Source of the DNA: a virus
Length of the DNA stretch: 64,000 nucleotides
Direction: 5' to 3' (one strand)
IMG/VR virus record: IMGVR_UViG_3300021963_000062
Coordinates: 1-64,000 of that record
Below, in pieces: positions 13,763 through 46,409 of the stretch. Below the pieces are notes generated by a model. The model did no database searches. It was given only the letters and a program-made list of their open reading frames with translations, and was not told the origin of the DNA. Both the position numbers and the translations under genes were made by a program. Position 1 is the first letter of the stretch. The number at the start of each line of letters is the position of its first letter.

Positions 13763-13789
13763 AAAAAAAGGAAGGGATCAACCCTTCCT
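13763..13789 (-). terminator. Intrinsic terminator closing the DUF4278 operon
   Basis: AGGAAGGG-N5-CCCTTCCT hairpin followed by a U tract on the minus strand. Confidence 0.75.
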
Positions 13790-13945
13790 ATTAAGTATTG
13801 GTTTAAAAGATAACATGTCTTCAAACCATTCTCTTAAGTGTATGCGATAACACGACCAATACTTGCATCCCCTATAAGTTAGTTGATAACAAGCAGGTGG
13901 TCTACTATCCTTATCCATATCATCGTCGTGATAGTTGTAGTCCAT
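13778..13945 (-). CDS. DUF4278-like small protein, 55 aa
   Basis: YQLTYRGCKY motif; start overlaps the upstream stop. Confidence 0.55.
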   Translation of the reverse strand: MDYNYHDDDMDKDSRPPACYQLTYRGCKYWSCYRIHLREWFEDMLSFKPILNRKG

Positions 13946-14031
13946 CACTTATAAAGCCATTGGATATAAAGGGATAGTAACATTGTAGCTAATGCAATTC
14001 CCGCAGTTATGGAAAGGATAGCTTGTGTCAT
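13945..14031 (-). CDS. Single-TM peptide, 28 aa
   Basis: MTQAILSITAGIALATMLLSLYIQWLYK; TAATG and TGATG overlaps at both ends. Confidence 0.55.
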   Translation of the reverse strand: MTQAILSITAGIALATMLLSLYIQWLYK

Positions 14032-14132
14032 TACTTTGCTCCAACGAGTTGTGCTAGTTGTGCTTGATGACGACGATTTTCTTTTTGTTTTTGTTCTTTA
14101 ATAAGTTGTAGGAAGTTGAGTTTTTGAATCAC
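14031..14132 (-). CDS. Basic Gln-rich peptide, 33 aa
   Basis: GTG start after AAGGAGG overlapping the DUF4278 stop; MIQKLNFLQLIKEQKQKENRRHQAQLAQLVGAK. Confidence 0.55.
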   Translation of the reverse strand: MIQKLNFLQLIKEQKQKENRRHQAQLAQLVGAK

Positions 14133-14266
14133 TTGTGCCCCTCCTTTACAAACTTGACGCCACGATAGACTTCACTTTGTTGTTGGGGTTGTTGCATCAT
14201 CTGTTGTTGATAAGCGATACGCTTTTCGGTATCATACTCAACACCGCGATAAACGACTTTGGACAT
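14129..14266 (-). CDS. DUF4278 protein, 45 aa
   Basis: MSKVVYRGVEYD..QQQMMQQPQQQ..VYRGVKF with two YRGV motifs; SD AGGAG. Confidence 0.8.
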   Translation of the reverse strand: MSKVVYRGVEYDTEKRIAYQQQMMQQPQQQSEVYRGVKFVKEGHK

Positions 14267-14300
14267 TGGTTTTCTCCTAAAGAAATGAGAGGTTTTAATT

Positions 14301-14474
14301 CCCGTTCCTTCAGTCGGCTTTTGCGTCTAGGTTACAACTTTTTTTAGTCATCTGTTTAACTTCAAAGATAATTTCAGATTTGAATTGATCCTCAAGTCTC
14401 AGATTGTTATTAACATTTTTAATAATCATTTGTGCCTGTAAACAGGTCAATAAAAGTTGTTCCATAGATGAACG
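14301..14474 (-). ncRNA. Glutamine riboswitch-like motif (glnA/Downstream-peptide class), copy 2, with an ORF in the P2 loop
   Basis: 5' CGTTCATCTA and 3' TAGACGCAAAAGCCGACTGAAGGAACGG; P1 is CGTTC/GAACG; directly upstream of DUF4278. Confidence 0.65.
14310..14465 (-). CDS. 51-aa two-Cys protein embedded in riboswitch-like motif 2
   Basis: MEQLLLTCLQAQMII..KKSCNLDAKAD; the last codons are the conserved RNA motif. Confidence 0.65.
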   Translation of the reverse strand: MEQLLLTCLQAQMIIKNVNNNLRLEDQFKSEIIFEVKQMTKKSCNLDAKAD

Positions 14475-14476
14475 AT

Positions 14477-14730
14477 CCGTTCCGAGTCGGCTTACTTGCG
14501 TCCTATTTAATTTTTAGCACCTTGTCACTACGTCTCTTCGTAGTTCTAAAAGCAATCGGTCTTCTCTTCTTTGATTTACTACATCGTCGTTTTTAACGAT
14601 GTCCATAAGTTCCCACGCTGCGTCACAACTTATAGTCACAGGATATGGATTCTGGACAAGTCGTGGCGTTGAAACAGAAAGAAGTGGAACCCATGCCAAA
14701 AGCAAAAGTGCTTTAGTCATAGGATGAACG
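14477..14730 (-). ncRNA. Glutamine riboswitch-like motif, copy 1, with an ORF in the P2 loop
   Basis: 5' CGTTCATCCTAT and 3' ATAGGACGCAAGTAAGCCGACTCGGAACGG; P1 is CGTTC/GAACG, P2 is TCCTAT/ATAGGA. Confidence 0.6.
14514..14720 (-). CDS. 68-aa two-Cys protein with signal-like N-terminus, embedded in riboswitch-like motif 1
   Basis: MTKALLLLAWVPLL..ISCDAAWELMDIV..LLLELRRDVVTRC. Confidence 0.65.
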   Translation of the reverse strand: MTKALLLLAWVPLLSVSTPRLVQNPYPVTISCDAAWELMDIVKNDDVVNQRREDRLLLELRRDVVTRC

Positions 14731-14777
14731 TTAGGAGATTAGTATACTCCTATTCATACTATCTAGGCAAGTTTTTT

Positions 14778-14793
14778 TGTAATTTATGTTACA
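14778..14793. promoter_or_regulatory. Putative NtcA binding site
   Basis: TGTA-ATTTATGT-TACA matches GTA-N8-TAC; intergenic, about 50 nt upstream of the riboswitch-like tandem. Confidence 0.6.
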
Positions 14794-14805
14794 AATTTAC
14801 TTAAC

Positions 14806-14928
14806 TTAACCCCAATAGATGACTCCAAGAGTGAAGAAGAGAAATATAAGAACGGTGAAGACCATCATACCTACACCAAACCAAATTGACCACTTAGGCA
14901 TGGGTTCATATTCAGTATTATGAGACAT
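14806..14928 (-). CDS. Single-TM peptide, 40 aa
   Basis: MSHNTEYEPMPKWSIWFGVGMMVFTVLIFLFFTLGVIYWG; read manually. Confidence 0.55.
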   Translation of the reverse strand: MSHNTEYEPMPKWSIWFGVGMMVFTVLIFLFFTLGVIYWG

Positions 14929-14930
14929 AA

Positions 14931-15185
14931 TTAACTATCAATCCCTTGTGCAACATCTAAAGCTTTCTTGGCAGTTCCCAACAATCTATATCTTCTTTTA
15001 TCTTTAGTATAAGGTATGAATAACGAAAATCCCAGAAGATCACCATCTGGATCATCTGGGATTCCTACTGGTTGCACAAAGAATATTCCTGCATGTGCAA
15101 CGCATTTCCAACCAATATCTACAAATCCTAAGTCTCTTAAAGCACACTCAAGTTTTAAAGAATAACATGCTTCCTCTAACTTCAT
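14931..15185 (-). CDS. Hypothetical protein
   Basis: ORF in a tightly packed minus-strand run. Confidence 0.6.
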   Translation of the reverse strand: MKLEEACYSLKLECALRDLGFVDIGWKCVAHAGIFFVQPVGIPDDPDGDLLGFSLFIPYTKDKRRYRLLGTAKKALDVAQGIDS

Positions 15186-46270: not shown

Positions 46271-46380
46271 GGATAGTAAGACCATCAGGGAAATGGTGGA
46301 GATACTATGCTCCCCGCACCCTTAGCGGGGATATGAGAGACGGATTGGTAACCCTGCCTAGTCTCGGTCAAGCGGCAGGG
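46271..46380 (-). ncRNA. PhotoRC-II-like structured leader upstream of phage psbA
   Basis: CCCTGCC..GGCAGGG, CCCCGC..GCGGGG and ACCAT..ATGGT stems with a GACCGAGAC loop, in the location known for this motif. Confidence 0.7.
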
Positions 46381-46409
46381 AATACAATGTTACAGAAGAT
46401 GAAAATCTC

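Follow-up and report, generated by a model that had tools for sequence, protein, structure and literature searches.

Two glutamine-riboswitch cores lie on the minus strand at 14730-14303 of the window, the 64,000 nucleotides (nt) analysed from the 97-kb IMG/VR record IMGVR_UViG_3300021963_000062. The window derives from a T4-like cyanophage with Synechococcus and Prochlorococcus myoviruses among its close relatives. We consider it likely that this leader of an early cyanophage operon forms an interlocked double glutamine aptamer, with glnA-type (glutamine-I/II) cores built around nested genes. An earlier note, made from the sequence alone, had described two tandem glutamine-riboswitch-like RNAs with a protein-coding gene in the P2 loop of each. 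Its sequence statements all hold, including the occurrence of the pattern twice on the minus strand. Its picture of two aptamers lying side by side, with a separate P1 and small P3 in each, was not borne out, as P3 forms between the units and covaries in both length and bases.

The nested genes and the inter-unit P3 appear to be new for a known riboswitch class. Neither a gene inside an aptamer stem nor an inter-unit P3 is mentioned in the report that first described the motif and its supplement (PMC2864571), a functional study (PMC6212724), a review on tandem riboswitches (PMC9481103) or cyanophage genome work listing glnA RNAs (PMC9964418), and full-text literature searches, with Ames & Breaker 2011 outside their coverage, returned no description of the nested-gene layout.

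Identity of the cores

The identity of the cores was assigned through natural compact relatives with cores equal to those of the window. The S-PM2 locus is a compact doublet with P2 hairpins of 12 nt or 22 nt, and outside P2 both of its units are letter-for-letter equal to the window flanks. Against the Rfam model RF01739, which has a gathering score of 35 bits, the S-PM2 units scored 33.3 bits (unit 2) and 24.4 bits. Scores of further compact relatives, or of whole doublets, were 35.6 (DSL-LC02 unit 1), 36.6 (L081), 37.2 (L010), 40.3 (L071) and 43.6 bits (L018), the range for compact relatives with the same cores as the window being 24-44 bits. Unit 1 of S-PM2 also aligned to RF01704 at 24.6 bits (cut-off 33), with mismatched pairs in the 3' helix. 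Identical 3' cores are common to long and short units; those of the window are ACGCAAGTAAGCCGACTCGGAACG (unit 1, between ATAGGA and GAT) and ACGCAAAAGCCGACTGAAGGAACG (unit 2, after TAGA). The assignment to glutamine riboswitches in the earlier note is upheld by the identity of the flanks to the S-PM2 doublet that matches RF01739. Aptamers of the compact glnA and Downstream-peptide types recognise glutamine and activate translation of DUF4278 genes (PMC6212724), and the window cores would be expected, from their shared core sequence, to bind L-glutamine like these compact relatives.

The window itself gave zero Rfam matches at the element at gathering score, as did the phage record, and a search of the 600-nt region 14200-14800 at E<=10 returned only chance matches to small nucleolar RNA and CRISPR models. 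Such a miss by covariance models had been correctly predicted. A score of at least 35 bits to RF01739 was thus not reached, even at E<=10, and the combination of at least 33 bits to RF01704 with a 3' helix enclosing GGAACGG was not found in the window, which had no match to that model. The sole gathering-score Rfam match in the window was a PhotoRC-II RNA (RF01717, 63 bits) at 46297-46392 on the minus strand.

The 3' core motif ACGCAA-N8-20-GGAACGG occurred in exactly two copies in the 64 kb, with 0.00 expected from 100 shuffles. The copies are 2 nt apart when counted from GGAACGG and 3 nt (GAT) apart when counted from GAACG. The P1 strands CGUUC and GAACG of the RF01739 consensus are both present twice and perfect, as had been reported (14730-14726 and 14474-14470 for CGTTC; 14482-14478 and 14307-14303 for GAACG), the first CGTTCA lying at 14730-14725. 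P2 starts with U-A and C-G after CGUUCA and extends to 6 bp in unit 1 (P2a) and 4 bp in unit 2 (P2b), both stems being those previously proposed. Their loops of 212 and 135 nt are far outside the RF01739 model. The element also sits in the 5' leader of a DUF4278/YRG-peptide gene, as expected for this family. The J2/3 strand ACG(G/C)AAGUA, a small P3 hairpin and GAAG were not found together in one unit of the window. Unit 1 has GUA, with CG in place of GAAG, and unit 2 has GAAG and lacks GUA, so that only the combined doublet fits the family consensus. No pattern emerged for a putative covarying 'linchpin' pair between the variable C/G of ACG(C/G)AA and the base that follows GGAACG.

Genes nested in the P2 stems

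A scan of IMG/VR for the junction GGAACGGANCGTTCAT yielded 120 loci, which together with L001-L003 and the window gave 124 parsed tandem junctions. Among the 209 units parsed from these junctions, 98 were long, with inserts of 116-234 nt, and 111 were compact. All 98 long inserts had an ATG 3-10 nt after CGTTCA (at 3-5 nt in 95 and at 4 nt in 69), and in 97 a single open reading frame (ORF) filled the insert, extending from this ATG as far as the 3' half. Measured from the A of ACGCAA, the stop codon of the inner ORF lay either 4 nt upstream, within the P2 3' strand, or 7, 11 or 14 nt downstream, within the core, and the core-internal stops give aptamer-encoded C-termini such as WDAND and DAKAD. 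For ORF2 of the window, the last six codons and the stop are encoded by the P2b 3' strand, J2/3 and P3. Its ending GAC GCA AAA GCC GAC TGA (DAKAD-stop) inside the 3' core had been read correctly in the earlier note, as had the AUGs at 14720 and 14465 in the P2 5' strands, neither of which is preceded by a GGAG-type Shine-Dalgarno sequence. Annotated ORFs occupy both P2 loops in P-SSM4 and P-HM1, and the second only in DSL-LC02.

Because a nucleotide-pattern search is biased, a protein-first search was also made with two unit-1 ORF families, the products of which contain no aptamer-encoded residue except Met1. Both aptamer halves were found at 151 of the 160 homologue loci with a strict script. 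Most of the other nine either lay on contigs truncated at the element or carried CGTTCA at 8-10 nt upstream, where P2 was longer and still complementary, for example TCACTAC paired with a strand ending GAAGTGA. The layout is common to hundreds of related phages. A scan of genome contigs with a 15-base junction pattern gave almost entirely chance matches among those listed, with a single genuine instance of the cyanophage doublet carrying nested ORFs. That instance (L327; JBIPLY010000594.1, 3767 nt) lies in an Acetobacteraceae metagenome-assembled genome bin, where it is probably a binning error.

The inner ORFs belong to one superfamily, in which a C-x(35-40)-C segment with both cysteines invariant comes after a hydrophobic N-terminus, and match phrog_504 and phrog_6471. 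A profile search returned 1021 clusters (90% identity), none of them named and all originating from marine or freshwater assemblies. The pairwise ratio of nonsynonymous to synonymous substitution rates (dN/dS) was 0.11 in one family and about 0.25 in the ORF1 family, and the third codon position was the most variable. The inner ORFs are under purifying selection. AlphaFold2 predicted a two-helix hairpin for ORF2, with a predicted local distance difference test score (pLDDT) of 86; in the ORF1 prediction (pLDDT 66) this core was preceded by a hydrophobic helix at the N-terminus. A fold search with the ORF2 model gave no match at E<=0.001, and ORF1 and ORF2 had zero Pfam matches and zero clusters in the protein atlas. 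Public gene calls of the ORF2 family, including P0002, P0004, P0006 and P0032, were 75-80 residues long against the usual 53, and these longer calls may start upstream and read through the junction, hiding the aptamer. In P-SSM4, a manA RNA (184 bits, L002 119-304) just upstream of the nested-gene doublet overlaps the annotated coding sequence PSSM4_169.1 (174-347), which may be a false gene call.

The P2 strands were found to covary across the genes that separate them. Among 71 distinct long units, P2 position 3 was C-G in 50, U-A in 17 and U-G in 3; position 4 was C-G in 31, U-A in 18 and A-U in 12; and position 5 was A-U in 47 and U-A in 8. The mean number of paired P2 positions in these units lay ~10 standard deviations above that for shuffled partners. 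A second test was restricted to one family, with 42 distinct units aligned by MAFFT, 500 shuffles and partner-column slide controls. One pair was UA in 25, CG in 10 and UG in 4 units, and the next was CG in 20 and UA in 15. None of the 500 shuffles matched the observed paired fraction or covariation score, and sliding the partner column dropped pairing to 15-50%. The choice of stop codon of the nested ORF (UAA, UGA or UAG) covaries with the two nt before its own AUG (A4 columns 13-14/217-218, L205-L280), because both lie in P2. Each P2 thus wraps a genuine coding gene, as originally proposed, and covaries across the insert in homologues. Of the suggested check on P1 and P2 covariation, the P2 half was thereby answered, with covariation across variable inserts, and the P1 half was uninformative since P1 is invariant.

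The 5' and 3' P2 strands of the same unit paired at 5.1-5.5 of 6 positions, compared with 3.9 for the strand of the neighbouring unit and 3.8 for the outermost strand. In the window the corresponding values were 6 and 5 for the units' own strands versus 3 (neighbour) and 2 (outermost). As own-strand pairing is far better than that with the neighbour, a purely local circularly permuted junction aptamer is ruled out. It is highly improbable that only the compact 44-nt junction works, as a permuted aptamer made of the unit 1 3' half and the unit 2 5' half, with the outer halves as orphans. The junction GAACG-GAU-CGUUC does fold locally, with a pair probability of 0.3-0.75 in the window leader fold, but the P2 strands that it would require are those matching at 3.9 of 6 positions (3 of 6 in the window), and the halves that would be orphans in this reading show full conservation, with covariation between each of them and its partner over the insert.

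The energetic cost of closure was estimated for 87 units by forcing P1 and the first four P2 pairs. For the natural units the median cost was 0.86 and the mean 0.80 kcal/mol, and 40 of the 87 already hold these pairs in the minimum-energy fold. Mononucleotide-shuffled inserts had a mean cost of 4.18 kcal/mol, with the natural sequence lower in 87/87. Synonymous-codon shuffles had a mean cost of 1.71 kcal/mol, with the natural sequence lower in 82/87 (Wilcoxon p about 1e-13), these p-values being optimistic because the units are related, although the direction was uniform. The synonymous sites of the coding inserts are biased toward stem closure. When the whole window leader was folded, the pair probability was 0.8-0.98 for P2b and 0.43-0.52 for P2a, the latter falling to 0.08-0.14 once the downstream gene was added to the fold, and forcing both P2 stems cost 0.7 kcal/mol.

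Pairing between the two units

The P3 strand after GUA in unit 1 (P3a) and that before GAAGG in unit 2 (P3b) had lengths of 5/5, 6/6 or 8/8 in 91 of the 95 loci. Their partners included AGTCG/CGACT, AGTCA/TGACT, AGCCGACG/CGCCGACT, AGCCGACA/TGCCGACT, CGCCGACT/AGCCGACG and GGACGG/CCGCCC, with U-A, G-C, A-U and C-G all represented among the inter-unit end pairs. In most of these P3 variants, a mini-hairpin inside one unit could not form its closing pairs. Formation of P3 between the units, with covariation in length and in bases, implies that the two cores are interlocked. In the best Rfam alignment of the L018 doublet, the P1 5' strand, P2 and J2/3 were likewise taken from unit 1 and the P3 3' strand, GAAG and the P1 3' strand from unit 2, the remainder being placed in the P3 loop. 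For the window, homology with these variants would assign the P3 strands to the same inter-unit duplex, in which the two AGCCGACT strands pair at 6/8 positions with two C.A mismatches.

With P3 between the units, the pseudoknot-free fold has two P1 helices, an outer one around both genes and an inner hairpin, GAACG-GAU-CGUUC. In the window the outer P1 (14730-14726/14307-14303) probably encloses both genes, with the inner hairpin at the junction. By nearest-neighbour energies this nested fold of the window was 2.4-3.3 kcal/mol better than the side-by-side fold. P1 partners are not assignable from sequence, as P1 is invariant. In the glutamine-II crystal dimer, CGUUC and GAACG are reciprocally swapped between two cores (PMC7357161, on PDB 6QN3). 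The junction linker was 3 nt in 135 of the 142 protein-first loci and a structured 44-nt insert in five. In these five (L163-L166 and L169, at about 1440-1490) the insert contains a GCCUA/UAGGU stem and P3 has the reciprocal form CGCCGACT/AGCCGACG.

The alternative of two independent side-by-side aptamers, each with its own P1, an AG[CCGA]CU P3 hairpin and a nested gene, and acting pseudo-cooperatively, appears rather unlikely. The P3 segments of the window can each form a 2-bp mini-hairpin, the within-unit P1 is perfect, Rfam aligns the S-PM2 units separately, and tandem glutamine riboswitches have been described as pseudo-cooperative doublets (PMC9481103). However, the variants AGTCG/CGACT, AGCCGACG/CGCCGACT, CGCCGACT/AGCCGACG and GGACGG/CCGCCC cannot close within a unit and pair perfectly or at 6/8 between units, with strand lengths that change together. 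The split of GAAG and GUA between the units, such that only both combined satisfy the family consensus, and the less favourable energy of the side-by-side fold also argue for the interlocked arrangement.

Several considerations weigh against an interlocked double aptamer around nested genes. The sequences compared are related and not independent, so the shuffle statistics overstate significance. Both P3 strands of the window are AGCCGACT, which allows two mini-hairpins as well as the duplex, and with an invariant P1, covariation cannot separate nested from side-by-side (pseudoknotted) P1 pairing. The full core lies 6.7-11.3 kcal/mol above the free ensemble, a value calculated without tertiary or ligand energy. 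The window element receives no Rfam score whatever. Between the last GGAACG and the downstream AUG, the consensus fold was a single 3-bp hairpin with no covarying helix, and the RNA evidence consists of contigs only.

Some of these points would also fit the long forms being disabled sensors, with aptamer halves retained only to signal translation or to form a start-stop stem modulating mRNA stability or the translation of the inner ORFs. The absence of an Rfam match in the window and the competition of long-range closure with ribosomes are both compatible with this explanation. Against it, conservation in the long forms equals that in the compact forms at each nucleotide of the core, the 3' cores being identical; P2 and P3 covary, and synonymous sites are biased toward closure. 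In addition, long and short units are freely combined in one interlocked doublet, which needs both for P3. Loss of sensing is thus an improbable explanation, and the interlocked double aptamer is preferred.

Operon context, proposed switch and known systems

The features of the element and of its immediate surroundings are collected in Table 1.

Table 1. Promoter candidate, aptamer strands, nested genes and downstream gene of the element, in window coordinates
Feature	Position	Strand	Remarks
sigma-70-like promoter candidate, TTGCCT-18-TATACT	14741..14770	-	9/12 consensus matches
P1 5' strand of unit 1, CGTTC	14726..14730	-	probable partner GAACG 14307-14303 (outer P1), from inter-unit P3 and energies
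P2a 5' strand, TCCTAT	14719..14724	-	includes A and U of the ORF1 AUG (14720-14718)
ORF1, 68 codons	14514..14720	-	fills P2a loop; 77/80 homologues flanked by both aptamer halves
P2a 3' strand, ATAGGA	14501..14506	-	6/6 pairs in 77/77 family members
J2/3 of unit 1, CGCAAGTA	14493..14500	-	conserved core strand; identical in S-PM2 unit 1 (aligns to RF01739, RF01704)
P3 5' strand, AGCCGACT	14485..14492	-	partner 14319-14312, by inter-unit covariation
Junction GAACG-GAT-CGTTC	14470..14482	-	unit 1 P1 3' strand (14482-14478), 3-nt linker, unit 2 P1 5' strand (14474-14470)
P2b 5' strand, TCTA	14465..14468	-	last base is A of the ORF2 AUG (14465-14463)
ORF2, 51 codons	14310..14465	-	two-cysteine helical hairpin; fills P2b loop; matches phrog_504
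P2b 3' strand, TAGA	14326..14329	-	
J2/3 of unit 2, CGCAAA	14320..14325	-	identical in S-PM2 unit 2 (33.3 bits to RF01739)
P3 3' strand, AGCCGACT	14312..14319	-	partner 14492-14485; encodes ORF2 end; last T opens the TGA stop
GAAG (J3/1) and GAACG (P1 3' strand of unit 2)	14303..14311	-	GAACG at 14307-14303
Shine-Dalgarno sequence, AGGAG	14274..14278	-	strong; precedes DUF4278-like gene
DUF4278-like YRG-peptide gene, 45 codons	14129..14266	-	two YRG motifs; phrog_5049 E 5e-12

From its position, the promoter candidate would set the 5' end of the RNA a few nt ahead of the first CGTTC. The counterpart in relatives is TTGACT-17-TATAAT or TATACT, 8 nt before CGTTCA. In four metatranscriptomes, contigs covered 14050-14750, with zero coverage at 14790-15000; such contigs show no RNA ends, strand, level or translation. 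The pieces spanned all of ORF2 and the junction and most of ORF1, and some metatranscriptome contigs of relatives carried a compact hairpin instead of an ORF. This coverage is compatible with a start at the predicted promoter, which is a weak hint.

A DUF4278-like gene, the usual kind of downstream target, follows the element, in agreement with the DUF4278 link drawn in the earlier note, although its match to PF14105 is weak (19.4 bits, under the 25.3 cut-off). Another common type of locus has an anti-Shine-Dalgarno CUCUUUA directly after GGAACG, as in the Synechocystis model. The operon seemingly runs on past the DUF4278-like gene with three more tiny ORFs at 13769-14132 on the minus strand. 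The first has 33 codons from a GTG at 14132, begins MIQKLNFLQLIKEQ and resembles by eye the MNTLNLIRKQI family, found immediately after the riboswitch in other phages. A 28-codon hydrophobic peptide (14031-13945) comes second, and the third ORF has 56 codons (13948-13778), with a terminator-like hairpin at 13789-13769. The sequence UCUCCUAA (14731-14738, minus strand) is complementary to UUAGGAGA at the downstream Shine-Dalgarno (14273-14280) and was paired with it in one fold. This pairing was dropped as a candidate, since transcription probably starts downstream of UCUCCUAA, a segment that is conserved in neither S-PM2 nor P-SSM4.

In the proposed interlocked aptamer, the leader would run 5' to 3' through the P1 5' strand, P2a around ORF1, J2/3, the P3 5' strand and the GAACG-GAU-CGUUC junction hairpin, and then through P2b around ORF2, J2/3, the P3 3' strand, GAAG and the P1 3' strand to the Shine-Dalgarno sequence and the DUF4278-like gene. 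Each inner AUG would occupy P2 positions 5-7, beside P1, in a region that 30S initiation would need to be single-stranded. With the AUG inside P2 and the end of ORF2 inside the 3' core, the folded, ligand-bound sensor should silence the inner genes. Conversely, a ribosome on ORF1 or ORF2 would part the P2 strands and keep the sensor open. In the nested model a ribosome on an inner gene would also part P3 and the outer P1, and one terminating on ORF2 would sit on P3, GAAG and the outer P1. This geometry suggests that ligand binding and inner-ORF translation would be mutually exclusive.

Glutamine level and ribosome traffic could then jointly choose between the two-cysteine proteins and the downstream DUF4278-like gene, with likely reciprocal expression. 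We tentatively propose a two-input switch of this kind, with host glutamine and ribosome occupancy as its inputs, in which the nested proteins would be made in the open state and the downstream IF17-like peptide in the closed state, while regarding it as somewhat less probable than its negation.

Riboswitch aptamers are usually viewed as compact non-coding domains upstream of the genes that they control. Here a validated aptamer class spans 135-212 nt of translated sequence, with one helix common to the two cores. If the two-input switch is real, the element would be the first riboswitch in nature with an aptamer built around translated genes, whose start and stop codons double as stem nucleotides. 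If glutamine is bound, metabolite sensing and translation can couple inside the aptamer itself, and cyanophages would gain a compact readout of host nitrogen status early in infection. Covariance-model censuses would also undercount long-insert riboswitches, nearly half of the sampled cyanophage units being long. The layout makes testable both the independence of tandem glutamine riboswitches and the role of a very large family of two-cysteine phage proteins.

Partial parallels to this arrangement exist among other structured RNAs. Group I introns, such as that of phage T4 td, hold ORFs in peripheral loops, and their translation and RNA folding can interfere. They differ in being ribozymes and mobile elements rather than ligand sensors, and their ORFs are homing endonucleases without stem nucleotides as start or stop codons. 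In the Salmonella mgtA leader, translation of mgtL similarly alters the fold of a sensing RNA, but mgtL encodes a short sensor peptide within the expression platform, not a conserved protein of 50-70 residues inside the aptamer. Discontinuous hammerhead ribozymes also assemble a small core across a long insert, with no ligand and no nested gene.

Among glutamine riboswitches, the glutamine-I class (RF01739; Synechocystis gifB/IF17 leader, PMC6212724; doublets, PMC9481103) has the same core strands CGUUCA, ACG(G/C)AAGUA and GAAGGAACG. It also shares a P2 with a U-A/C-G base, the tandem habit, the position before DUF4278-type genes and the cyanobacterial or cyanophage setting. The window differs from this class in that its P2 loops of 135 and 212 nt are complete genes with the start codon in the stem, and in that P3 lies between two units to give interlocked cores, with no covariance-model match. 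In its compact form, as published, this class works as an ON switch. The glutamine-II class (RF01704; PDB 6QN3, PMC6698751) forms one compact pseudoknot of ~60 nt and lacks a nested ORF, but it resembles the window element in its CGCA-type J strand, in its CGUUC:GAACG helix, which there is a pseudoknot and is swapped between molecules in the crystal (PMC7357161), and in its tie to YRG/DUF4278 peptides in marine picocyanobacteria.

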